The notes: a model not told the origin generated them from the sequence alone. A DNA stretch of 64,000 nt from Alphaproteobacteria bacterium (GCA_965237415.1 CBDEFM010000001.1:96001-160000); one strand, 5' to 3'; numbered from the stretch's first letter, positions 43,119 through 53,617 are shown. Numbers and translations: made by a program.

Positions 43119-44129
43119 ATGAGCGCTCGCCCGCAGATCGACCCACCCTATCTGCTCTTCCTCGGCGATGCGCGGGACGACCTCGCCGCCAAGACCGCGC
43201 GCGGGGTGTTCGTCTTTCGGCCGGAGTGGTGCCTCGGCCAGCTCAGGCTGCCGGGGTGCAACGCCCGCCTCGACCTGCCCGAGATGACGTTGGAGGAGGC
43301 GGCGGCAAAGGGCGCAAAAAGCCTCATCGTCGGCGTCGCCAACGCTGGCGGGGTGGTTAGCGAAAGCTGGATCGCCACCCTGGTGGCGGCGCTGGAAACG
43401 GGCCTCGACGTGGCCAGCGGGCTTCATGTGCGCCTCAGCGACCTTCCGGCGGTGCGCGATGCTGCCGAGACGTACGGCAGGCATCTCTTCGACGTGCGCC
43501 ATCCGTCGCATGAATTCAAGGTGGGGACGGGCGTCCGCAGAGCCGGCAAGCGCCTGCTCACGGTGGGCACCGATGCCTCGGTCGGCAAGATGTACACTAC
43601 GCTCGCGCTGGAAGCCGAATGGCGCCGGCGGGGCGCCCCCTGCACCTTCCGCGCGACCGGGCAGACCGGCATCTTCGTCGCCGGCCGCGGGGTCTCGGTC
43701 GATGCGGTCGTAGCCGACTTCATCTCCGGTGCCACCGAGTGGCTCACGCCCGCGAACGACCCGAATCACTGGGACCTCGTCGAGGGGCAGGGCTCGCTCT
43801 TCCACCCCTCCTATGCCGGTGTGACGCTGGGTCTGATCCACGGCGCCCAGCCAGACGCGATCGTGGTCTGCCACGAGCCGACGCGGACCCATATGCGGGG
43901 CCTGCCGGGCTGGCCGCTGCCCGAGCTCGGCGCCTGTATCGAGGCCAACCTGCAGGCTGCGCGGCTCACCAATCCGGAAGTCGTCTGCGCCGGCATCTGC
44001 GTCAACACCGAGGCGCTCGGCGATGCCGAGGCGCAAGAGGTGCTAGCCGAGCTGGGCAAGGCGCACGGCCTCCCCTGCGTCGATCCCATCCGCACCGGCG
44101 CGGGCCCGATCGCCAACCGCGTGCTGTAA
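43119..44129 (+). CDS. dgcN: D-glutamate N-acetyltransferase (DUF1611 family)
   Basis: PYLLFLGDA, AKTA.G, SGLH, VGTDASVGKM, ATGQTG, VEGQGSL.HP. Confidence 0.88.
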   Translation: MSARPQIDPPYLLFLGDARDDLAAKTARGVFVFRPEWCLGQLRLPGCNARLDLPEMTLEEAAAKGAKSLIVGVANAGGVVSESWIATLVAALETGLDVASGLHVRLSDLPAVRDAAETYGRHLFDVRHPSHEFKVGTGVRRAGKRLLTVGTDASVGKMYTTLALEAEWRRRGAPCTFRATGQTGIFVAGRGVSVDAVVADFISGATEWLTPANDPNHWDLVEGQGSLFHPSYAGVTLGLIHGAQPDAIVVCHEPTRTHMRGLPGWPLPELGACIEANLQAARLTNPEVVCAGICVNTEALGDAEAQEVLAELGKAHGLPCVDPIRTGAGPIANRVL

Positions 44130-44141
44130 GGGGCCGGTTCC

Positions 44142-45125
44142 GTGAGGCGGCGTCTCACCGTGCGCCTCGAAACGTGGCCGCTCAAGGGCGCCTTCCGCAT
44201 CTCCCGCGGGTCGAAGACGGAGGCGCACGTCGTCGTCGCCGAGGTCGCCGACGGCCCCCACACGGGCCGTGGCGAGGCCGTCCCCTATCCCCGCTACGAC
44301 GAGACACCGGCGCGAACGCGCGCGGAGATCGAGGACGCGCGCGAGGCTGTGGAGGGCGGGCTTACCCGCGAAGGCCTGCTGGAGGCACTGCCGGCCGGCG
44401 CCGCTCGCAACGCGCTCGACTGCGCGCTCTGGGACCTGGAAGCGAAGCAGGCGGGCCGCCCGGCCTGGTCGCTGGCGGGGCTGAAGTCGCCAGAGCCCTG
44501 CGTCACCGCCGTCACACTCGGCCTCGATACACCCGAGAATATGGGTGAGGCTGCGGCCCGGCACGCGCACCTCCCTCTGCTCAAGCTCAAGGTCACCGGC
44601 GAGGGCGACCTCGCGCGCATCCAGGCGGTCCGCGCCAACGCGCCCGAGGCGAGGCTGATCGTGGATGCGAACGAGGGCTGGTCGCCGCCGATGCTGGATG
44701 AGCTGCTGCCGGCTCTCGCCGCGCTCGGAGTCGAGATGGTGGAACAGCCGCTGCCGGCGGCAGACGATGTGGCGCTCGAAGGCCGCAGCTTCGCGCTCCC
44801 GCTCTGTGCCGACGAGAGCTGCCACACACGCGCCGACCTGCCTGGGCTCGCCGGCCGCTACCCCATGGTCAACATCAAGCTGGACAAGACCGGGGGCCTC
44901 ACGGAGGCGCTCGCGCTCGCGGCCGAAGCGCAGGCCATGGGCTTTCGCATCATGGTGGGCAGCATGGTCGGCACCTCGCTCGCCATGGCGCCGGCTGCCC
45001 TGCTCGCCGGCTTCGCCGACTACGTCGACCTCGACGGCCCGCTGCTGCTGGCCCGCGACCGCTCGCCTGGGCTCAGCTACGACGGCGCGATGATGTCACC
45101 GCCGGAACCCGCGCTCTGGGGGTAG
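44142..45125 (+). CDS. dgcA: N-acetyl-D-glutamate racemase / L-Ala-D/L-Glu epimerase
   Basis: F.ISRG, KLK, DANEGW, EQP, ADES, NIKLDKTGG, DLDGP; follows dgcN. Confidence 0.88.
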   Translation: MRRRLTVRLETWPLKGAFRISRGSKTEAHVVVAEVADGPHTGRGEAVPYPRYDETPARTRAEIEDAREAVEGGLTREGLLEALPAGAARNALDCALWDLEAKQAGRPAWSLAGLKSPEPCVTAVTLGLDTPENMGEAAARHAHLPLLKLKVTGEGDLARIQAVRANAPEARLIVDANEGWSPPMLDELLPALAALGVEMVEQPLPAADDVALEGRSFALPLCADESCHTRADLPGLAGRYPMVNIKLDKTGGLTEALALAAEAQAMGFRIMVGSMVGTSLAMAPAALLAGFADYVDLDGPLLLARDRSPGLSYDGAMMSPPEPALWG

Positions 45126-45211
45126 CCCGCTTTAGATTCTTTACAAATTGAGTCTGGGTAAAGACTGAGATAGTGTTCGCCCGAATTGGACATGCCTGAA
45201 AGGACGTTGTC

Positions 45212-45439
45212 ATGCCGCGCGTGAGCGCCAAGCGCCAGATTACGCTGCCCATCGATCAGTGCAGAGAAGTCGGGATCGGGCCGGGGGACGAGTACCGCAG
45301 CTTCGTTGCCGATGGCCGTATCACCATCGTGCGAAAGACCGCTGGCGCGACCAAGGGATTCCTGCGTCATGTAGCCGGCGACCCCGCCGTTGGCGACGAA
45401 GAGTCCCTGCAGGACGCTCTGGACGAGTCGAAGCCTTGA
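45212..45439 (+). CDS. AbrB/MazE-type antitoxin
   Basis: VSAKRQITLP...GIGPGD. Confidence 0.85.
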   Translation: MPRVSAKRQITLPIDQCREVGIGPGDEYRSFVADGRITIVRKTAGATKGFLRHVAGDPAVGDEESLQDALDESKP

Positions 45440-45870
45440 TCGCCGTCGACACCAGTGTCTTGCTCCGGTATCTGCTGCACGACGATGAGGCCCAGGCAGC
45501 GCGGGCGGAGGCTGTTTTCGGTGCTGCCGAGACCGTTTTGATCACAGACGTTGTGCTTGCGGAAACCGTATGGACGCTCTCCGGCCGCAAGTACCGACTG
45601 GCCAAGGTCGAACTGGTGGCCGTCCTCGAACGGCTGTTCAGCGAGCCGAATGTCCGTTTCGAGGACGATCAGGCGGTTTGGCGCGCCCTGCAAGCGTACC
45701 GCAGCACCGCGCCGGCGGACGAGGCCGGGTCGGAGAAGGGTGCCGGCTTCGCCGATGCGCTGATCGTGTTCAAGGCGCAGCGTGCCGCATCGGACTCTGA
45801 CGAGACGCTGAACGGCGTCTACACCTTCGACGCGGCCATGGGGCGGCTGCCACACACCGTATCGCTCTGA
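45436..45870 (+). CDS. vapC: VapC PIN-domain toxin
   Basis: IAVDTSVLLR, VLAE..W, FADALI, TFD; TTG start overlapping the antitoxin stop. Confidence 0.85.
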   Translation: MIAVDTSVLLRYLLHDDEAQAARAEAVFGAAETVLITDVVLAETVWTLSGRKYRLAKVELVAVLERLFSEPNVRFEDDQAVWRALQAYRSTAPADEAGSEKGAGFADALIVFKAQRAASDSDETLNGVYTFDAAMGRLPHTVSL

Positions 45871-46115
45871 AAGCAATCCGACGTAGGCTGCAGCCAGCCC
45901 GCCGCGCCAATCGGACGGTTCTCGACATCGGCATGGGGAGTCCACCACAAACTTTGCCGCCGGCCTCGCAACTGTGGCGGCGCGTATCGTAGGTGCGGGT
46001 CGCTACCATTTCCATTTGCCTGGGTCGCGGCCTTGTCTCCCTTCGTCCGATCTGAAATTCTGGCGGTGTGATAAGAAGGACCGGCTGGCACCGGACCGGC
46101 GCAGAGAGAGGGGCG

Positions 46116-46769
46116 ATGGGCCGTCTGCTGGAACTCGGGGAGCGGATGGAGCTCGTCTCCATGGACCCGCATTTCCACGACATCAGCATCTCCCTCTACC
46201 GCAGCAGCGGAGAGGGCGGCGCGTCGGGATTTCTCGCCCACAGCTACAGTGCGAAGGAGGGTGCTGAGGAGCGGCTTGGCTTCGTGATGCGGGCGATGGC
46301 GGTCATGGGCGGCATGGGGCCGGCGCCGGGTCAGCCCGATCGCCTGGCTTTCGCCTGCGGGGCCGCGCACAAGGCGGCGGTGAAGCGGCTCTTTCTCGAA
46401 GCCTGCAAGCGGGCGACGGGCGCCGAGGTTGCGGCGCAGCCCATGCGCGTCTACGACAAGAAGAACGATCTCACGATCGACGCGACAGCCGTCGGCGACG
46501 GGCGCTACCGGATCGCGGCCGCAGGCAGCGAGGGCAACGACAAGGCGGCGCAGCGCGTGGACGGCGTGACCAGGGGGTTGATCAAGCTCGCCGAGCTGGA
46601 GCCGGGTGCCGAGCCGGGCGAGGTTCGCTTCCCCTGCGGCCATGCCCATGACGCGCTGGTGGGCCTCCTGATCGGCCGGGCGCTCAACGTCCGTGCCGCC
46701 ATGCGCGAGGCGGAGGCGGCGGCGACGCGGGGCATTCTCGCCGCGCCGAGCGCGCAACAGCAGACCTGA
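46116..46769 (+). CDS. Hypothetical protein with duplicated F-x-C-G-x-x-H motif; first gene of the corrinoid methyltransferase operon
   Basis: ATG 46116 after GAGGGG; LAFACGAAH and VRFPCGHAH; 18 nt to the next gene. Confidence 0.75.
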   Translation: MGRLLELGERMELVSMDPHFHDISISLYRSSGEGGASGFLAHSYSAKEGAEERLGFVMRAMAVMGGMGPAPGQPDRLAFACGAAHKAAVKRLFLEACKRATGAEVAAQPMRVYDKKNDLTIDATAVGDGRYRIAAAGSEGNDKAAQRVDGVTRGLIKLAELEPGAEPGEVRFPCGHAHDALVGLLIGRALNVRAAMREAEAAATRGILAAPSAQQQT

Positions 46770-46787
46770 GGGTCGGGAGCGGAGACG

Positions 46788-47831
46788 ATGACGACAGTAC
46801 CCTCCATGACCAGCCGCGAGCGGGTGATGGCGGCGCTCCGGCGCGAGCCGGTGGACCGGACGCCCATATGCAACCCGACCTCGGTCGCGACCGTGGAGCT
46901 GATGGACCTGGTGGACGCCAACTTCCCGCTGGCGAACCGCGACCCCGAGCTGATGGCACGCCTCGCCGCGACCGGCCATACCGAATTGGGTTTCGACAGC
47001 ATCATGCCGGTCTTCTCGATCATCCAGGAATCGTCGGCGCTCGGCTGCAACATGCAGTGGGAGCAGAAGGACAATTGGCCGACGGTGCGCATGCGCGAGC
47101 CGATCTGGGAGGACGTGGACGACATCCGCATCCCCAACGACTTCCTCATGCACCCGGACATGCACTGCGTGATCGAGGCTATCCGCATCCTGCGGCGCGA
47201 GTTCGGCAACGAAGTGGCGATCATCGGCAAGACCATGGGGCCGTGGACGCTGGGCTATCACTGCTTCGGAGTGGAGCCCTTCCTGCTCATGTCGCTCGAC
47301 GATCCGGGCAAGACCAAGCTCGCGCTCGATCGCATGAAGGAGGCGACCATCCAGTTCGGCATGGCCCAGATCGAGGCCGGTGCCGATGCACTGACGGTCC
47401 CCGATCACGCCACCGGAGACCTGGTGAGCGCGGATTACTACAAGCGCTATCTCAAGGACCTGCACATCGAGTTCGTGGAGCGCCTGCCGGTGCCGCTCAT
47501 CCTCCATATCTGCGGACGCACGGTGGACCGCATGGGCTATATCGCCGAGACCGGGATCGCCGCGTTCCACTTCGATTCCAAGAACGATCCGGCCGAATCG
47601 ATGGCGGTGATGGACGACCGCGTGTCGCTGGTCGGCAACATCAACAATCCCGAGACGCTGTTCGCCAAGGGGCCGGAGGACGTGCGCAGGGAGGTCTATG
47701 CCAATCTCGACGCCGGCGTGCAGGCGGTGGGCCCGGAATGTGCCATCCCGCTCCAGACCTCGGTCGAGAACCTGCGCGAGATTCCGCTGGCGGTGCGCGA
47801 TTGGCACGCCGAGCGCGACCGCCCCCACTAA
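46788..47831 (+). CDS. MtaA/CmuA-family (URO-D fold) Zn-dependent corrinoid methyltransferase
   Basis: MTSRERVMAAL, GPWTL, QIEAGAD, LHICG and distal PECAIP (H-x-C...C zinc ligands), LVGNI. Confidence 0.88.
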   Translation: MTTVPSMTSRERVMAALRREPVDRTPICNPTSVATVELMDLVDANFPLANRDPELMARLAATGHTELGFDSIMPVFSIIQESSALGCNMQWEQKDNWPTVRMREPIWEDVDDIRIPNDFLMHPDMHCVIEAIRILRREFGNEVAIIGKTMGPWTLGYHCFGVEPFLLMSLDDPGKTKLALDRMKEATIQFGMAQIEAGADALTVPDHATGDLVSADYYKRYLKDLHIEFVERLPVPLILHICGRTVDRMGYIAETGIAAFHFDSKNDPAESMAVMDDRVSLVGNINNPETLFAKGPEDVRREVYANLDAGVQAVGPECAIPLQTSVENLREIPLAVRDWHAERDRPH

Positions 47832-47887
47832 GGCCCGCTAACGCCCGCCTCCCGTGACACCTCATCGCTCCCACCACTGAGTCCCCG

Positions 47888-48637
47888 ATGGCCGAGCTTT
47901 CCGACATCGCCAACGCGGTGATCCGCGACGAGATCGAGGAGTTCCTCGAGCGGCCCGACGAGATTGAGCGCAACGTCGCGCTATTCGCGCGGGTGCGGCC
48001 CGAGATGCAGGAGATCACCGCAGCCCTGATCGAGGGCGACAATCACACCGTGGACGCGCTGACCGTCAAGGCACTGGAGGAGGGCACGGAAGCGCTCGAG
48101 ATCATGGACGACGGGCTCATCGCCGGCATGGGCATCGTCGGCATCAAGTTCCGCGAGAACTTCATTTTCGTGCCCGAGGTGCTGGCCTGCGCGCGGGCGA
48201 TGAAGGCGGGCATGGCCCATATCGAGCCGATCCTGTCTGCCGCCGGCGTCGAGCCCATCGGCACCGTCATCATGGGCACGGTCAAGGGCGACCTGCACGA
48301 CATAGGCAAGAACCTCTGCATCATGATGCTGGGCGGCGCCGGCTTCGAGGTGGTGGACCTCGGCGTGGACACCTCCGAGGACGAGTTCATCGCAGCACTC
48401 GAGGAGCACAAGGCGCCGATCATGGGCATGTCGGCGTTGCTCACCACGACGATGCCGAACATGGGCAGGACCATCGAGGCGCTGATCGACGCCGACCTCC
48501 GCGACGACGTGATGGTGATGGTGGGCGGCGCCCCGGTGACCCAGGAGTTCGCCGACGACATGGGCGCCGACGGCTACGGCAAGGACGCGCTCTCCTGCGT
48601 GGCGCTCGCCAAGAAGCTCATGGAAGAGCGCGGATAG
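47888..48637 (+). CDS. Corrinoid (B12-binding) protein, MtaC/MttC-like
   Basis: Cap domain (GLIAGM...IFVPEVL..A.AM) plus KGDLHDIGKN, GMSALLTTT, VMVGGA. Confidence 0.93.
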   Translation: MAELSDIANAVIRDEIEEFLERPDEIERNVALFARVRPEMQEITAALIEGDNHTVDALTVKALEEGTEALEIMDDGLIAGMGIVGIKFRENFIFVPEVLACARAMKAGMAHIEPILSAAGVEPIGTVIMGTVKGDLHDIGKNLCIMMLGGAGFEVVDLGVDTSEDEFIAALEEHKAPIMGMSALLTTTMPNMGRTIEALIDADLRDDVMVMVGGAPVTQEFADDMGADGYGKDALSCVALAKKLMEERG

Positions 48638-48646
48638 GCCGGGCCG

Positions 48647-50641
48647 TTGCCGAAAATCAGCCAGCAGGACTATCAGCAGCGGCTCGACCGGCTCACCGAG
48701 ATTTTTTCGGACATCGTAAGCCACGCCGACGTGCAGGCGACGCAGCGCTGCCCCTACCGCGACGCGCGCGACCGCTGCACGGCCGCCTTCTCCTGCGGCA
48801 ACCAGATCGCCGCCGTGGAGAAGGGCGAGCCCGCGACCTGCGGCCATGACGGCACCTTCGACTACAGCCTCGCGTGGGAAACCGACCCCGCCACCCGCGA
48901 GCGCGCCCGTAAGCGCCTCGGTCTAATCAAGCAGAGCGCCGCGGCGCGCCGCGAAGGCGGAGCGCTGCCGGTCGGGCCGGGCACCGTCTCCCACGACGGC
49001 AAGATTCAGCCGCTCGCCATCGGTATGACGCTCTTCGACTGCGCCGACGAGCTTGCCGTCGAGGTGCCGACATCGTGCCTCCGCAACGGCCGCTGCCACG
49101 AGTGCGTGGTCGAGGTGACCGGTGGCAAGGATGCGCTCTGCGCACGCACCGAGGCGGAGAGCTTTCTGCGGCCTCCCTACCGCCTCGCCTGCCAGGCGGT
49201 GGTCGAGCGGGACGATATCGATGTCACCTTCGCGCCGCTTCGCCGCCGCCCGCGCATTCTGGTCCGCGCCCATGCCGATGCAGCCGGTGCGCCTGAGACC
49301 CTCGACCCTCTCGTTACGCGGCGGGGCGCCGACGTGCTCTACGACGGCCGCGTGGTAGACCGCTACCGGGGGCACATGCTCGGGCTCGCGGTCGATCTCG
49401 GCACCACGACGGTGGTCCTCGACTTCGTCGATCTGGAGACCGGGAAGAGCGTGCACAGCGCCGCCTTCGAGAACCCGCAGGCCTTCGGCGGCAGCGACGT
49501 GATGCACCGCATCTCCTTCGACCGCGACGACAAGGCGGGCGAGCTGCAGAAGGCCGCCGCGACCGCCATCAGCCGCGCCATTATGGACGGCTGCGCGCGG
49601 CTGGGGCTGGGCCGCGAGACAATCTACGAGATCGTGGTCGCGGCCAACCCGACCATGCGCGATATCCTGTTCAAGCTCGACGTGCAAGGGATCGGCCAGA
49701 AGCCTTACAAGTCTTCCATCGAGCACGCCTTCCTCGCGGGCGAGCGCGCCGACACGGCGCTCACGGCGCTGGCCCGGCGCCTGGGTCTCCGCGCCAACCG
49801 CGAGGCGCGGGTGTATGGGCTCCCGCTGATCGCGAGCCACGTGGGCGGCGATGCGGCGGCTGCACTGGTGGCGCTGGAACAGGGGTTCGCGGACGCAGAG
49901 ACGGCGATGCTCGTGGACATGGGCACCAATACCGAGGTCGTGCTCAAGCACCGGGGCCGCCTGCTCGCCGCCTCCTGCCCGGCGGGGCCTGCGTTCGAGG
50001 GGGGACTGGTGCGCTACGGCATGCCGGCCTGCGACGGCGCCATCGAGACGGTGCGCCTCGGCGCGGACGGCGAGGCAATCTACGAGACCATCGGCGGGGC
50101 AGCGCCAGTGGGCCTCTGCGGCTCCGGCCTGATCGACCTGCTGGCGGAGCTTCGGCGGGGTGAATGGCTCACGGCCAAGGGCGTCTTCGCCGCCGACCGC
50201 AAGCAGATGGAAATGACGGTGGTGCCGGCGCACGGGATCACCTTCTCGAAGGAAGACGCCAGCAATCTCGGCCAGGCCAAGGCCGCCAACTATTGCGGCC
50301 AGTACATCGTCATGCGCGCGCTCGGCGTCGATCCCGCCGGGATCGAGAGGCTCTATCTCGCCGGCGGCTTCGCCAACTATGTGAATGTGCGCAACGCCGT
50401 CTCCATCGGCCTGCTGGCGCCGGTGCCGGAAGAACGCATCGTCAAGGCCGGCAACGCGGCGGCGCAGGGCGCCCGGGCGATCCTGCTGTCCGCCACCCGG
50501 CGCCGGGCGCTGGAGCGCGAGGTCCAGGCCATCGAGCATATCGAGCTCGAGACCACGCCCGATTTCTTCGATCTCTTCGTCGATGGCTGCCAGTTCAAGC
50601 CGATGCCATCGCACCTCGGGCCAGCAGGGACCGCCGCATGA
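48647..50641 (+). CDS. ATP-dependent reductive activator of corrinoid proteins (RACE/RamA-like, ASKHA) with 2Fe-2S domain
   Basis: CLRNGRCHEC...RLACQ ferredoxin; VDLGTTT, NPQ..G.DV..RI, DMGTNTE, AGPAFEG, GLCGSG, LAGGF, GNAA..GA. Confidence 0.9.
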   Translation: MPKISQQDYQQRLDRLTEIFSDIVSHADVQATQRCPYRDARDRCTAAFSCGNQIAAVEKGEPATCGHDGTFDYSLAWETDPATRERARKRLGLIKQSAAARREGGALPVGPGTVSHDGKIQPLAIGMTLFDCADELAVEVPTSCLRNGRCHECVVEVTGGKDALCARTEAESFLRPPYRLACQAVVERDDIDVTFAPLRRRPRILVRAHADAAGAPETLDPLVTRRGADVLYDGRVVDRYRGHMLGLAVDLGTTTVVLDFVDLETGKSVHSAAFENPQAFGGSDVMHRISFDRDDKAGELQKAAATAISRAIMDGCARLGLGRETIYEIVVAANPTMRDILFKLDVQGIGQKPYKSSIEHAFLAGERADTALTALARRLGLRANREARVYGLPLIASHVGGDAAAALVALEQGFADAETAMLVDMGTNTEVVLKHRGRLLAASCPAGPAFEGGLVRYGMPACDGAIETVRLGADGEAIYETIGGAAPVGLCGSGLIDLLAELRRGEWLTAKGVFAADRKQMEMTVVPAHGITFSKEDASNLGQAKAANYCGQYIVMRALGVDPAGIERLYLAGGFANYVNVRNAVSIGLLAPVPEERIVKAGNAAAQGARAILLSATRRRALEREVQAIEHIELETTPDFFDLFVDGCQFKPMPSHLGPAGTAA

Positions 50642-51717
50642 CCGTCTCGCCGACCACCGGGCCGTCTCTCACCGTCATCGGCGAGAACATCCACTGCACG
50701 CGCGTCGCGCTGCGCAAGGGCAAGCGCATCGCCGAGCGCGATGGCGCCGAGACGATCCTCTACCGCACGGCCGAGGGGGAGGAGCGCGCGCTCCCGGTCA
50801 CTGAGGAGTCCAAGCGAACCAAGGACTACGAGGAGGGGCGGGTCAAGCACGTCCAGGTCGCGATCGAGACCGCGATGGAGACGGCGGCGAGCGATCCGCC
50901 GGGCGATCCGGCCGAGGGCCTGCGCTATATCGAGGCTCTGGTGCGCCATCAGGAGCTGGCGGGCGCCGCATTCCTCGACCTCAACGTGGACGAGATCTCG
51001 CCCAAGCTCGCGGTGCAGACCGGCGCCATGACCTGGCTCGCCGCGACTGTCCAGGGGATGACGGCGCTGCCGATCTCCGTCGATTCCTCCAGCGTCGACG
51101 TGATTCGCGCGGGGCTGGAGGCGATTGCGCCGGCGCAGGCGCGCCCGATGCTCAACTCCGCCTCGCTGGAGCGGCTGGAGGCCCTCGACCTCGCACGGGC
51201 GCACGACTGCCGCGTGGTGGTGACCGCCGCCGGCGAGCGGGGCATGCCGAATGGCGCCGAGGAGCGGGTGGCGAACGCCTCGCGGATGGTCGAGGCTGCG
51301 CTCTCCAAGGGCTTTGCCATCGGCGATCTCTACATCGACCCGCTGGTCTTCCCCATCTCGGTCGATTCCCGCTTCGGCCACCACTGCCTCGATGCGATCC
51401 GGAGCTTACGCGCCCGCTTCGGCGCGGGCATCCACATCACCGGCGGCATGAGCAACGTCTCCTTCGGCTTGCCGGCCCGCAAGCTGCTCAACGAGCTGTT
51501 CGTCCTGCTCGCGGTGGAAGCCGGCGCCGACGGCGGCATCCTGGACCCGGTGGCGAGCCCGCCGGAGGCGATCCTCGCCATCGACCGCGAAGACCCCCGC
51601 TACCAGCTCGCCGAGGACGTGATGCTGGGGCGCGACGAGCACTGCAGGGCCTATATCCGCGCCTGGCGGAAGGGCCGGCTCGCGGCCGGTCGCGCCGACA
51701 GGCGCGCGGCCGATTGA
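50638..51717 (+). CDS. Methyltetrahydrofolate:corrinoid methyltransferase (AcsE/MT2, pterin-binding)
   Basis: IGENIH, LDLN, ISVDS, MLNS, IDPL, GMSNVSFGLPARKLLN; ATGA overlap with the activator gene. Confidence 0.88.
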   Translation: MTVSPTTGPSLTVIGENIHCTRVALRKGKRIAERDGAETILYRTAEGEERALPVTEESKRTKDYEEGRVKHVQVAIETAMETAASDPPGDPAEGLRYIEALVRHQELAGAAFLDLNVDEISPKLAVQTGAMTWLAATVQGMTALPISVDSSSVDVIRAGLEAIAPAQARPMLNSASLERLEALDLARAHDCRVVVTAAGERGMPNGAEERVANASRMVEAALSKGFAIGDLYIDPLVFPISVDSRFGHHCLDAIRSLRARFGAGIHITGGMSNVSFGLPARKLLNELFVLLAVEAGADGGILDPVASPPEAILAIDREDPRYQLAEDVMLGRDEHCRAYIRAWRKGRLAAGRADRRAAD

Positions 51718-51736
51718 GGGAGAGGAAACCCGCGCC

Positions 51737-52138
51737 ATGACCGAGACCGACCGGCCACCGCAAGACGAGCCTGCGCTCCGCACGCTGGCCATGCCCGCCG
51801 ACGCCAACCCCAACGGCGACATCTTCGGCGGCTGGGTGCTGGCGCAGATGGACCTCGCCGGCGGCGTTGTGGCGGCGCGGCGCGCCGGCGGGCGCATGGT
51901 TACGGTTGCGGTCGAGGCGATGCGCTTCCACGCGCCGATCGCCATCGGCGACCTTGTGACCTGCTACGCCCGGGTAACGAAGACCGGGCGGACCTCGATC
52001 ACCGTCGCCATCGAGACCTGGGCGCGCCGGCGGCGCGGTCCTAAGGAGGTGAGGGTGACCGAGGGCACCTTCATCTATGTCGCGATCGACGAAGAGGGCC
52101 GCCCCCGCCCCCTCCCCGACGAGACCGCGGAGGGCTGA
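51737..52138 (+). CDS. Acyl-CoA thioesterase (YciA-like hotdog fold)
   Basis: MPADANPNGDIFGGW.L.QMD, GRTSI, YVAID. Confidence 0.92.
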   Translation: MTETDRPPQDEPALRTLAMPADANPNGDIFGGWVLAQMDLAGGVVAARRAGGRMVTVAVEAMRFHAPIAIGDLVTCYARVTKTGRTSITVAIETWARRRRGPKEVRVTEGTFIYVAIDEEGRPRPLPDETAEG

Positions 52139-52171
52139 CGGCGGAGCTTGCTGTCGCCGCAATCCTTCGCG

Positions 52172-53617
52172 TCAGGAGGGGATGCTGGCGGCGGGATCGT
52201 GGGCCGGGTCGAGGCCGCGAATGACGACGCAGGGCATGGGCGCAGCGCGAAGCACCTTGCACGCCCGCTTGGCGTCGCTCTTGTAGAGCCCCAGGAATCG
52301 CGCCCGATAGAGGGTGCCGGGGCCCACCGCACTGGATTCGAGCATCGCTGCTGCGCCGTTGAGGGAGGGCGCGCGTGCCGTCGCCCGGCGCATGGCGATT
52401 TGAGCTGCCGTGATCGACTCGTAGGCGCCCACCTGAATGCCCCAGGGGCGGGCGGTCACCGAGTCTGCCTCGAACGTGTTGGCCGGCGATTTGGTCCCGG
52501 ACGCAACCGTCGCCCTCGCGACCGTCGGCGCCACAACCCCGGGCTTGGAGGGCGGAGGCGGCGGGCCCGAAGCGACATCGGCCTGCACCGCCTCGGCACT
52601 CTCGATCGGCTCGGCCGGAGGCGCCGCGGCACCTTCGGCCAGTTCGGGCGGCTGGGCCGCCGCAACCAGGATTGCTGCAGGCTTGAAGCGCGCGGTCGGC
52701 GCGGCCAAGCCGGAGCCTGCCGGTGGCCGCGGAATGCCCGCATAACGGACGCGGCCACGCGCGGCGTCGCGCTCGGCGATCCGCGTGAAGCCGAGGTCGA
52801 GAAGATTGGCCATGTGACTGTTGCGCGAGCTCGCGGTCTTGCCGCCAAAGACCACCGCGATGACGCGCCGGCTGTCGCGCTCCGCCGACGCCACGAGGTT
52901 GAACCCCGAGGCGCGAATGTAGCCGGTCTTTATGCCGTCCATGCCGCGGTAACGACCCAGCAGCCTGTTCGGCGTGCGATGCTCCCTCCCCCTGTAGCCG
53001 AAGCGCTCGTCGTCGAAATAGTGGTAGCGGTGCGGGAAATCCCGCATCAGGGCGCGCGCGAGCTGCGCCATGTCCCGCGCCGTGCTGCGCTGCTTCCGGT
53101 TCGGCAAGCCGGACGCATTGCGGAAGGTGGTTCGAGTCATACCCAACGTCCGGGCCTTGCTGGTCATCTTCTGGGCAAACTTGACCTCCGTTCCGCCCAA
53201 CGCCTCGGCGACCACCACGGCGATATCGTTGGCCGACTTGACCACCAACGCCCTGATCGCGTCCTCGACGCGGATCGTCGAGCCGGCGCTAGGCCCGAGC
53301 TTCGACGGCGGCTGCCCCGCCGCCCGCTTGGAGACCTTCAGCTTGGAGTCGAGGCTGAGCCGCCCCTGGTCGATCGCCTCGAAGAACAAGTAGAGGGTCA
53401 TCATCTTGGTCAGCGACGCCGGATACCTGCGTATATCGGCGTTGCGGGAGCGCAAGACCTCGCCTGTTTCGGCGTCGATGACGATGGACGCGTAACGCGC
53501 CTGCGCCGTCTCGGCGGCGAAGACTTGAGACAATGCCAGGACGCAGAGTGAGAGCACGAGGGCGAGCACGATGGAGCCCGGCCGTGAGATTCTTCTTCTT
53601 TTTCGCCGCGCTTCCAC
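52172..53617 (-). CDS. D-alanyl-D-alanine carboxypeptidase (S11) with C-terminal SPOR domain
   Basis: ASLTK, KSAND, IKTGY; WGIQVGAY...LYRARF. Confidence 0.92.
   Translation of the reverse strand: MEARRKRRRISRPGSIVLALVLSLCVLALSQVFAAETAQARYASIVIDAETGEVLRSRNADIRRYPASLTKMMTLYLFFEAIDQGRLSLDSKLKVSKRAAGQPPSKLGPSAGSTIRVEDAIRALVVKSANDIAVVVAEALGGTEVKFAQKMTSKARTLGMTRTTFRNASGLPNRKQRSTARDMAQLARALMRDFPHRYHYFDDERFGYRGREHRTPNRLLGRYRGMDGIKTGYIRASGFNLVASAERDSRRVIAVVFGGKTASSRNSHMANLLDLGFTRIAERDAARGRVRYAGIPRPPAGSGLAAPTARFKPAAILVAAAQPPELAEGAAAPPAEPIESAEAVQADVASGPPPPPSKPGVVAPTVARATVASGTKSPANTFEADSVTARPWGIQVGAYESITAAQIAMRRATARAPSLNGAAAMLESSAVGPGTLYRARFLGLYKSDAKRACKVLRAAPMPCVVIRGLDPAHDPAASIPS

Follow-up and report, generated by a model that had tools for sequence, protein, structure and literature searches.

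A five-gene operon resembling the aerobic corrinoid methyl-transfer hub, with a proposed, uncharacterized MtaA-type spoke, in an alphaproteobacterium and in seven further phyla

Introduction

We report the analysis of a five-gene operon that fills positions 46116 to 51717 of a 64,000-nt stretch of alphaproteobacterial DNA (Alphaproteobacteria bacterium, GCA_965237415.1, CBDEFM010000001.1:96001-160000; hereafter, the window, with positions counted from its first nucleotide). Its co-directional genes, g1 to g5, encode a protein with no assigned family, a zinc-type methyltransferase of the MtaA/CmuA family, a stand-alone corrinoid protein, a reductive activase and a pterin-binding methyltransferase. 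The original prediction for this locus described a split, self-reactivating corrinoid system linking tetrahydrofolate (THF) to a zinc-type methyltransferase, and the parts list assembled here supports that description. The operon is best explained as a corrinoid methyl-transfer hub of the aerobic kind, complete in itself and the second in its genome, equipped with an uncharacterized substrate spoke.

Hubs of this kind have been described in two aerobic bacteria. Phaeobacter inhibens is described as making methionine through a three-part MetH together with a RamA-like DUF4445 protein and DUF1638 (Price et al., PMC5764234). According to the text of Mausz et al. (PMC12478193), MtgC, a corrinoid protein of Ruegeria pomeroyi, and its pterin counterpart MtgD take part in both glycine-betaine demethylation and methionine synthesis, with the MttB-family protein MtgB as the spoke for glycine betaine, the homocysteine module MtgE as the spoke for methionine, and MetF2 oxidizing methyl-THF; about 70% of the genomes carrying MtgBCD are stated there to lack MetH. 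The four-part corrinoid logic is hence already known in aerobes, and the new part of the operon analyzed here would be, on sequence comparison, the g1-g2 pair, an MtaA-type spoke with a constant partner.

Organization and distribution of the operon

The five plus-strand genes are separated by 18, 56 and 9 nt, with an ATGA overlap between g4 and g5, and both the reading frames and the tight spacing that had been predicted were reproduced. The first gene, g1 (46116-46769), starts at an ATG preceded by GAGAGAGGGG and encodes a 217-aa protein that is the constant partner of g2 (46788-47831), a 347-aa methyltransferase of URO-D fold. They are followed by g3 (47888-48637), a 249-aa corrinoid protein composed of a cap and a Rossmann B12 domain with a DxHxxG motif, by g4 (48647-50641), a RACo/RamA-type reductive activase that begins with TTG and carries a fused N-terminal four-cysteine module, and by g5 (50638-51717), an MtgD/MeTr-like methyl-THF:corrinoid methyltransferase in which residues ~22-95 form a conserved insertion. 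Pfam and NCBIfam searches confirmed the predicted identities of g2 (URO-D/MtaA_CmuA), g3 (B12 domains), g4 (RACo) and g5 (Pterin_bind), and assigned no family to g1. We consider g1, g2 and g5 to be genuine coding frames because their third-position GC content lies between 0.88 and 0.92; the host genome has 67% GC.

A scan of one genome per species yielded 393 encoding stretches, of which the best 80 loci were kept for comparison, all of them from metagenome-assembled or single-cell genomes according to their titles. By attached taxonomy, these loci belong to Pseudomonadota (25), Acidobacteriota (24), Chloroflexota (24), Gemmatimonadota (2), Planctomycetota (2), and Latescibacterota, Spirochaetota and Actinomycetota (1 each). 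The synteny check that had been proposed for the five-gene order shows that the arrangement g1-g2-g3-(Cys module)-g4-g5 recurs across these 80 loci and eight phyla, with reading frames intact. Between Pseudomonadota and Acidobacteriota, g2 and g3 are ~80% identical and g1, g4 and g5 are 45-60% identical. An activase was found in 70 of the 80 loci, the count of 41/65 obtained under a coverage and identity filter being an undercount. The cassette is rare within the class of the host: g1 was found in 8 of 401 sampled genomes, including the host itself, all three other sampled members of its own family and two genomes in each of two further families.

In Chloroflexota/SAR202 the order differs, running g1, g2', g2, pterin module, corrinoid protein, MetV, MetF, Cys module and activase. 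Tandem g2 paralogues behind a single g1 are seen in loci L067, L068, L071, L072, L074-L076, L078, L080-L084 and L087.

The methyltransferase g2

The g2 protein matches the URO-D family of Pfam at 1e-65 and passes the cut-offs of the mtaA_cmuA subfamily model TIGR01463 (252.5 bits; cut-off 235.4) and of NF004889 (251.1; cut-off 244), while remaining under the equivalog cut-offs for MtaA (NF040654; 230.9 vs 400 bits) and MtbA (NF041608; 200.7 vs 600 bits). Its best match in the PDB is MtaA (4ay7, 1e-53), and the predicted zinc ligands of g2, H240-x-C242...C318, align with the LHICG and P-G-C segments of 4ay7. The intact H-x-C...C signature on which the original prediction relied is invariant in 27 aligned homologues from several phyla.

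Of 8000 candidates scored against g2, 5062 are relatives at E<=0.001; the 120 matches listed are 80-96% identical, and those that bear names are from Acidobacteria, Bryobacteraceae, Poribacteria and Latescibacteria. When 1.84 billion representatives were searched exhaustively and without a profile, 2437 matches were obtained at the same threshold. Outside the g2 family, the nearest full-length clusters are 38-50% identical to g2. When 83 full-length representatives were scanned with NCBIfam, four reached the MtaA equivalog cut-off, one reached that of MtbA and nine were fused to a corrinoid domain.

A phylogeny was reconstructed from 27 g2-family sequences and 81 of these 83 representatives, with HemE from the host genome as outgroup; the two representatives excluded were P0267, which is fused to AroB, and P0279, whose match is truncated. 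The g2 family, including both SAR202 paralogues, forms one clade (ultrafast bootstrap 100; Shimodaira-Hasegawa-like approximate likelihood-ratio test, SH-aLRT, 100; 200/200 bootstrap trees), with the bootstrap reported by the tool as not fully settled. A quick tree places this clade on a stem of 0.42 and nests it in a larger group (SH-aLRT 99) of the 38-50% identical neighbors, whose members, where named, belong to Bacillota and carry no label more specific than 'MtaA/CmuA family methyltransferase'. The four MtaA and the one MtbA equivalog representatives fall outside the g2 clade, as does P0262, the only corrinoid-fused representative near g2. The phylogenetic comparison with MtaA and MtbA proposed at the outset thus puts g2 in a clade of its own, outside both and within no characterized clade that could be labeled, in a tree that held no named CmuA, MtsA, MtpA or O-demethylase sequences.

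We favor a sulfur substrate for g2 because its zinc triad is invariant and because MtaA, its nearest solved relative, methylates a thiol, that of coenzyme M (CoM). Alternatively, g2 and g1 could form a methyl-halide (CmuA-like), methanol, O-methyl or N-methyl:corrinoid methyltransferase. The TIGR01463 model passed by g2 also covers CmuA, URO-D-fold methyltransferase I (MT I) enzymes are described as acting on ethers and haloalkanes (PMC13222342), and the lack of a conserved transporter beside the cassette would fit a small, diffusible substrate. We nonetheless regard a non-sulfur substrate as unlikely, for Cdm and some O-demethylases are described as needing no zinc (PMC13222342), whereas g2 keeps the thiol-type triad in 27 of 27 homologues. 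Nor is g2 a CmuA-like fusion, since g2 and g3 are separate genes lying 56 nt apart and the fused P0262 falls outside the clade, and a tblastn search of g2 against a plasmid collection retrieved 29 records, most of them hemE and none reaching 30% identity, with no cmu-like relative among them.

The partner protein g1

No Pfam or NCBIfam family matches g1 even at E<=10, a profile search of the PDB gave a single chance-level match (E 0.31), and the ESM Atlas offered no usable match. The protein has 651 homologues of similar length, named, if at all, 'hypothetical protein'. A g1 profile finds the gene in 76 of the 80 loci, in 74 of which it lies directly 5' of a g2. In L089 and L108 the two genes are ~1 kb apart, and L087 begins inside the cassette and cannot be judged for g1. 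On the basis of this gene adjacency, g1 is putatively bound to g2 as a two-protein unit. A search for fused forms of g1 gave none besides P0425 (509 aa), a candidate that was rejected: its first 300 residues match no family, and it looks like a probable case of an over-extended start.

Alignment of g1 homologues reveals invariant positions (G8, L13, D114, K116, R147, G154, F172, N191 and G206) and a conserved tail, RG.L.APSAQ, with no invariant Cys or His and no invariant residue able to act as metal ligand or nucleophile. An AlphaFold2 model based on 25 sequences (predicted local distance difference test, pLDDT, 88.4; predicted template-modeling score, pTM, 0.82) consists of two similar alpha/beta halves (residues ~8-100 and ~108-195) followed by a C-terminal helix with a flexible end. 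Foldseek found no PDB match to this model at E<=0.001. A wide structural alignment with VIA-align yielded no chain at Z>=8 and a best Z of 6.9, confined to the C-terminal half, where values below 8 may mean a mere common arrangement; each half bears a faint likeness (Z 4-7) to small alpha/beta domains that bind ligands, those of ACT-like type included. As modeled, g1 represents a widespread family with a confident structure and no recognizable fold or annotation.

The absence of invariant Cys or His residues in g1 and the weak likeness of its halves to ligand-binding domains could suggest that g1-g2 play no catalytic part as a spoke and are instead a regulatory or assembly accessory of a methionine-synthesis hub, or a decaying remnant. 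We deem this highly improbable: no other cassette protein is as well conserved as g2, the active site of g2 is intact, the frames are intact in the 80 loci, and contigs from RNA libraries cover both g1 and g2. These contigs, 90-99% alike, come from four runs in three studies and cover 30, 30, 28 and 18 of 30 bins between 45200 and 52700; one of the runs (X19) is labeled sponge metagenome. They are a weak indication of transcription in relatives, since strand and level are not readable from contigs and a DNA origin is possible.

Corrinoid protein, activase and pterin enzyme

The g3 protein combines B12-binding_2 (PF02607) and B12-binding (PF02310) domains with the motif GDLHDIG, and its best NCBIfam model is corrin_MtgC_2 (202.5 bits; cut-off 370). 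In g4, Fer2 (PF00111), Raco_middle (PF17651) and RACo_C_ter (PF14574) domains make up the 2Fe-2S, middle and ASKHA ATPase regions of a reductive activase that scores under the cut-offs of both the AcsV (267.8 vs 800) and RamA (102.4 vs 500) models. Residues 1 to ~80 of g4 (48647-48890) form a four-cysteine module with the invariant pattern RCPY...C..T..F.C.NQ...C...DY..AW, which was found in 75 of the 80 loci. This module aligns with separate open reading frames (ORFs) of 80-120 aa in other phyla, which sit between the corrinoid protein and the activase (e.g. L048:11830-12072 and L088:6322-6657). It matches no Pfam family and its predicted model is poor (pLDDT 64, pTM 0.29); possibly, it provides an extra metal site for electron entry.

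The g5 protein contains a Pterin_bind domain (PF00809) and reaches 189.2 bits against the generic methyl-THF:corrinoid methyltransferase model NF005719 (cut-off 259). Its earlier designation as an AcsE-type enzyme holds at the superfamily level and fails at that of the specific model, as g5 remains well below the cut-off for the methyltransferase (AcsE/MeTr) of carbon monoxide dehydrogenase/acetyl-CoA synthase (NF040758; 101.6 vs 370 bits). The barrel starts at residue ~10 and is interrupted by a conserved internal insertion of ~70 residues; an N-terminal extension was considered for this segment and rejected, because the barrel is already present at residue ~10. Insertion included, g5 is 59% identical over 340 residues to an Acidobacteriota homologue.

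Methionine synthesis and gene neighborhood

The host genome encodes a second corrinoid hub on contig C2 (1729500-1736000; L009 7509-13954), comprising MttB, a RACo protein with linker domain, a pterin module, DUF1638 and a corrinoid protein. With identities to the corresponding C2 proteins of 52% for g3, 30% for g4 and 34% for g5, g3-g5 are paralogues, not copies, of this MttB-linked set. The C2 hub adjoins an AraC/DJ-1 regulator and a formamidase-like gene.

The operon contains no homocysteine module (PF02574), and three stand-alone modules of this type are encoded elsewhere in the host genome. The host MetH (C2:3799262-3800616; L012 7260-9149) is fragmentary, retaining residues 1-196 of 283 of the homocysteine domain, the cap, residues 1-90 of the B12 domain and, in another frame, residues 2-54 of the activation domain, with no pterin domain left; the gene seems to be in decay, in a host that depends on split modules. 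Full-length MetH above cut-off was found in 3 of 16 cassette genomes, all alphaproteobacterial by title, and was not found in the other 13. Apart from the cassette g5, none of the six Acidobacteriota genomes has a MetH-type pterin module, and their homocysteine module is encoded away from the cassette; in all five Dehalococcoidia genomes the homocysteine, corrinoid and pterin modules are located inside the cassette. None of 17 genomes encodes a full-length MetE above cut-off, and 13 of them encode single-domain MetE-like ORFs that could be folate-independent methionine synthases. These ORFs (~350-420 aa), which are related to MetE over its C-terminal half, are found in the host at C2:949810-950835 and C2:2924121-2925125 and in 12 other cassette genomes.

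Neighboring genes were counted in the 65 loci extending at least 7 kb beyond g2, among them 19 from Pseudomonadota, 20 from Acidobacteriota and 22 from Chloroflexota. MetF (methylene-THF reductase, with a MetV-type partner) is present in 1/19, 17/20 and 14/22 of these, respectively. A stand-alone homocysteine S-methyltransferase module occurs in 21 of the 22 Chloroflexota loci, in none of the 19 Pseudomonadota or 20 Acidobacteriota loci, and also in the single Gemmatimonadota and the single Latescibacterota locus. Among these three phyla, an upstream GntR/FCD regulator is restricted to Acidobacteriota (18/20; 0/19 in Pseudomonadota, 0/22 in Chloroflexota), and two tandem g2 paralogues to Chloroflexota (14/22; 0/19 and 0/20 in the other two phyla).

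Taken with the host gene content, these counts revise the claim that the operon is not simply a split methionine synthase. The claim had been argued from the lack of a homocysteine domain in the operon, and that argument does not stand, because Chloroflexota cassettes hold the module in 21 of 22 loci. A split methionine synthase with its homocysteine module encoded elsewhere, which had been named as the finding that would overturn the original prediction, agrees in part with g3-g5, given the three modules present elsewhere in the host, and does not extend to g1-g2. For g3-g5, a hub akin to a split methionine synthase is the most fitting reading.

The same data raise the question of whether the whole cassette runs in the biosynthetic direction, with methyl groups passing from methyl-THF (produced by MetF) through g5 and g3 to g2/g1 and on to a thiol acceptor. 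In its strong form, this alternative makes g2 an MtaA-type homocysteine methylase and the operon an alternative cobalamin-dependent methionine synthase; in its weaker form, g2 makes some other methylthio metabolite. It would agree with MtaA passing methyl groups from methyl-cobalamin to a thiol, with the invariant triad, with MetF/MetV in many cassettes, and with the scarcity of full-length MetH (lacking in 13/16 cassette genomes, a remnant in the host) and MetE (0/17). Yet a MetH-type homocysteine module lies beside g2 in 21 of 22 Chloroflexota cassettes, with two g2 copies in 14 of the 22, and because module and g2 coexist g2 would not simply replace that module. The three stand-alone modules of the host, the GntR/FCD regulators, which suggest catabolism, and the presence of g1 in only 8 of 401 genomes of the class, a patchy distribution for a housekeeping enzyme, further diminish the case. 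SAM (S-adenosylmethionine) and cobalamin riboswitches are common ahead of methionine genes. An Rfam scan of 44500-53000 detected no family at E<=1, and hence no SAM or cobalamin riboswitch, and a scan of seven other loci (147 kb) detected only a group II intron. On balance, we see a biosynthetic role as a minor candidate with a low probability.

A scan for promoters and terminators was uninformative: it gave no promoter-like sites, and the four terminator-like sites it did give, where 1.8 would be expected, lie without exception on the minus strand. The group II intron domain (RF02003, 123 bits) lies at L048:7648-7784, ~1.5 kb 5' of the cassette in a Bryobacterales genome.

Flanking features

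Nineteen nucleotides 3' of g5, a plus-strand gene (51737-52138) encodes a YciA-like acyl-CoA thioesterase (4HBT, 8e-21; NF007970, 149.9 bits, cut-off 162). It was found in 10 of the 80 loci, all of them close alphaproteobacterial relatives, and does not adjoin g5 in L031; it is possibly a sixth gene of the operon, though a lineage-specific one. A further downstream candidate, the 467-aa ORF at 52148-53551 on the plus strand, was rejected on account of its third-position GC (0.65) and lack of a family match; the opposite strand encodes a Peptidase_S11/SPOR protein (D-Ala-D-Ala carboxypeptidase). Just 5' of the operon, a PIN-domain ORF (45259-45870, plus strand; 4e-10) overlaps a minus-strand ORF without family and is seen in some close relatives only, the 'up193' matches among the compared loci being on the opposite strand; it is possibly a toxin-antitoxin remnant. 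Further upstream (43119-45125, plus strand) lies a gene pair encoding DUF1611 and enolase-superfamily (MR_MLE) proteins, which also occurs near the cassette in the Actinomycetota locus L094 (38-39% identity). This pair is the sole flank common across phyla, and its occurrence beside the cassette in two of them is probably a coincidence.

Among the neighbors in other phyla, a ~105-aa PF13769 protein ('Virulence_fact') is present in 19/20 Acidobacteriota and 20/22 Chloroflexota loci (e.g. L043:16745-17056, L045:16591-16902 and L095:17530-17910) and absent from the 19 Pseudomonadota loci and from the host genome.

Proposed function

Having weighed the biosynthetic and non-sulfur alternatives, we favor a catabolic methyl-sulfur spoke, formed by g2 and g1, that would feed folate and methionine; with the substrate and direction deduced from context, we hold this reading to be an even call. 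In such a scheme, g4 would reduce the oxidized Co(II) of g3 back to Co(I) at the expense of ATP, with the help of its 2Fe-2S and four-cysteine modules, and g5, like MtgD, would pass methyl groups from methyl-THF to cobalt or the other way. Together, g2 and g1 would link cobalt to a small sulfur compound, activated at the zinc-thiolate site, and transfer a methyl group between the two. The likeliest direction would be the stripping of a methyl group from methanethiol, dimethylsulfide, methylmercaptopropionate or compounds of the dimethylsulfoniopropionate type onto g3, from which it could pass to THF via g5 for oxidation by MetF, or to homocysteine via a stand-alone homocysteine module.

The catabolic spoke is favored because of the MtgB precedent, the linkage to MetF, the GntR/FCD regulators and the absence of riboswitches from the loci scanned, and because g2 coexists with a true homocysteine module in Chloroflexota and no methanethiol oxidase of the SBP56 family was found in the 96%-complete host genome.

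Several observations weigh against this interpretation. The characterized MtaA reaction runs in the opposite direction, from methyl-cobalt to thiol, and THF is a thermodynamically unfavorable acceptor for the methyl group of a thioether. The host already possesses an MttB-type hub, so that a second full hub is not obviously needed, and in three loci (L095, L098 and L099) g2 occurs without g1. In the loci compared, neither a transporter nor a catabolic gene specific to a substrate recurs as a neighbor of the cassette. D-2-hydroxyacid dehydrogenases in 33 of the 65 loci and short-chain dehydrogenases/reductases in 30, neither of which reaches an equivalog cut-off, are unexplained by a simple methylthiol model; the former might be hydroxypyruvate reductase-type enzymes of serine-cycle assimilation. 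Finally, with named CmuA, MtsA, MtpA and O-demethylase sequences absent from the tree, a halide or ether may still be the substrate.

More specifically, and more tentatively, g1-g2 might be the long-postulated cobalamin-dependent methyltransferase that demethylates dimethylsulfide, methanethiol or methylmercaptopropionate in aerobes. It would then be a two-protein enzyme, with a partner of new fold, through which SAR202, sponge-associated Acidobacteriota, Poribacteria and Alphaproteobacteria channel methyl-sulfur groups directly to folate and methionine; we rate this as a possibility that is rather less probable than not. If the spoke does act on methylated sulfur, genes can be named for a step proposed decades ago, and a second entry route, beside glycine betaine, would lead into the cobalamin hub that makes methionine in many MetH-less marine bacteria. 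By their record names, carriers of the cassette include the abundant uncultured groups SAR202, Acidobacteriota, Latescibacterota and Poribacteria, and such a route would thereby matter for the demand for cobalamin and for the cycling of sulfur and methyl groups in the sea. Whatever the substrate, g1 stands as a widespread family without recognizable fold or annotation.

Comparison with known systems

With the methanogen enzymes MtaA and MtbA, g2 has in common the TIGR01463 subfamily, the fold and the zinc triad. It differs from them in its separate clade, its bacterial host of aerobic type, the use of THF as the other partner and the presence of the 217-aa g1; CoM would not be expected in the cassette hosts. 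Among methanogen proteins, MtsA and MtpA are the methylthiol enzymes, and the route from methylmercaptopropionate to mercaptopropionate offers a further point of reference.

The CmuA/CmuB system resembles the operon in carrying out corrinoid-dependent methyl transfer to THF in aerobic Alphaproteobacteria by means of an MtaA-like domain. In CmuA, however, the methyltransferase and corrinoid domains are described as residing in one polypeptide (PMC13222342), whereas here they are encoded by separate genes, accompanied by a dedicated activase and by g1.

O-demethylase and Cdm systems, as described in PMC13222342, likewise comprise a URO-D-fold MT I, a corrinoid protein, a pterin-type methyltransferase II and a RACo-type activator. 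The same source reports no zinc in the cavity of CdmB or in the Moorella O-demethylase, and the presence of zinc in the veratrole and vanillate O-demethylases. The operon departs from these systems in that g2 keeps the thiol-type triad; the hosts of Cdm and O-demethylases are strict anaerobes, and no homologue of g1 is described there.

Our literature search found no paper on an MtaA-like gene with a g1-type partner in aerobic bacteria. A cobalamin-dependent dimethylsulfide methyltransferase of aerobes is referred to as 'as yet unidentified' in a 2019 study of Methylophaga (PMC6548844), which cites Visscher and Taylor 1993 and Boden et al. 2010 as older sources.

The closest system is the aerobic MtgBCDE/RamA/MetF2 hub, of which the host itself carries one on C2, and the labeling of the operon as anaerobe-style, with Cmu as its main aerobic analogue, is accordingly not supported. 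The spoke of the operon, an MtaA/URO-D-fold enzyme with g1, differs from the MttB-family (PF06253) protein of the Mtg hub, and the terms 'MtaA' and 'uroporphyrinogen' do not occur in the main text of PMC12478193; the operon also lacks DUF1638, and its activase has the extra four-cysteine module. The points of likeness are an aerobic host, a stand-alone corrinoid protein, a pterin methyltransferase that would likewise work in both directions and a RamA/RACo activase that replaces the MetH reactivation domain, together with MetF linked in relatives, the frequent loss of classical MetH and, probably, homocysteine modules encoded apart. With the R. pomeroyi proteins compared by description, the likeness of g3-g5 to the Mtg hub stands at the level of domain families.

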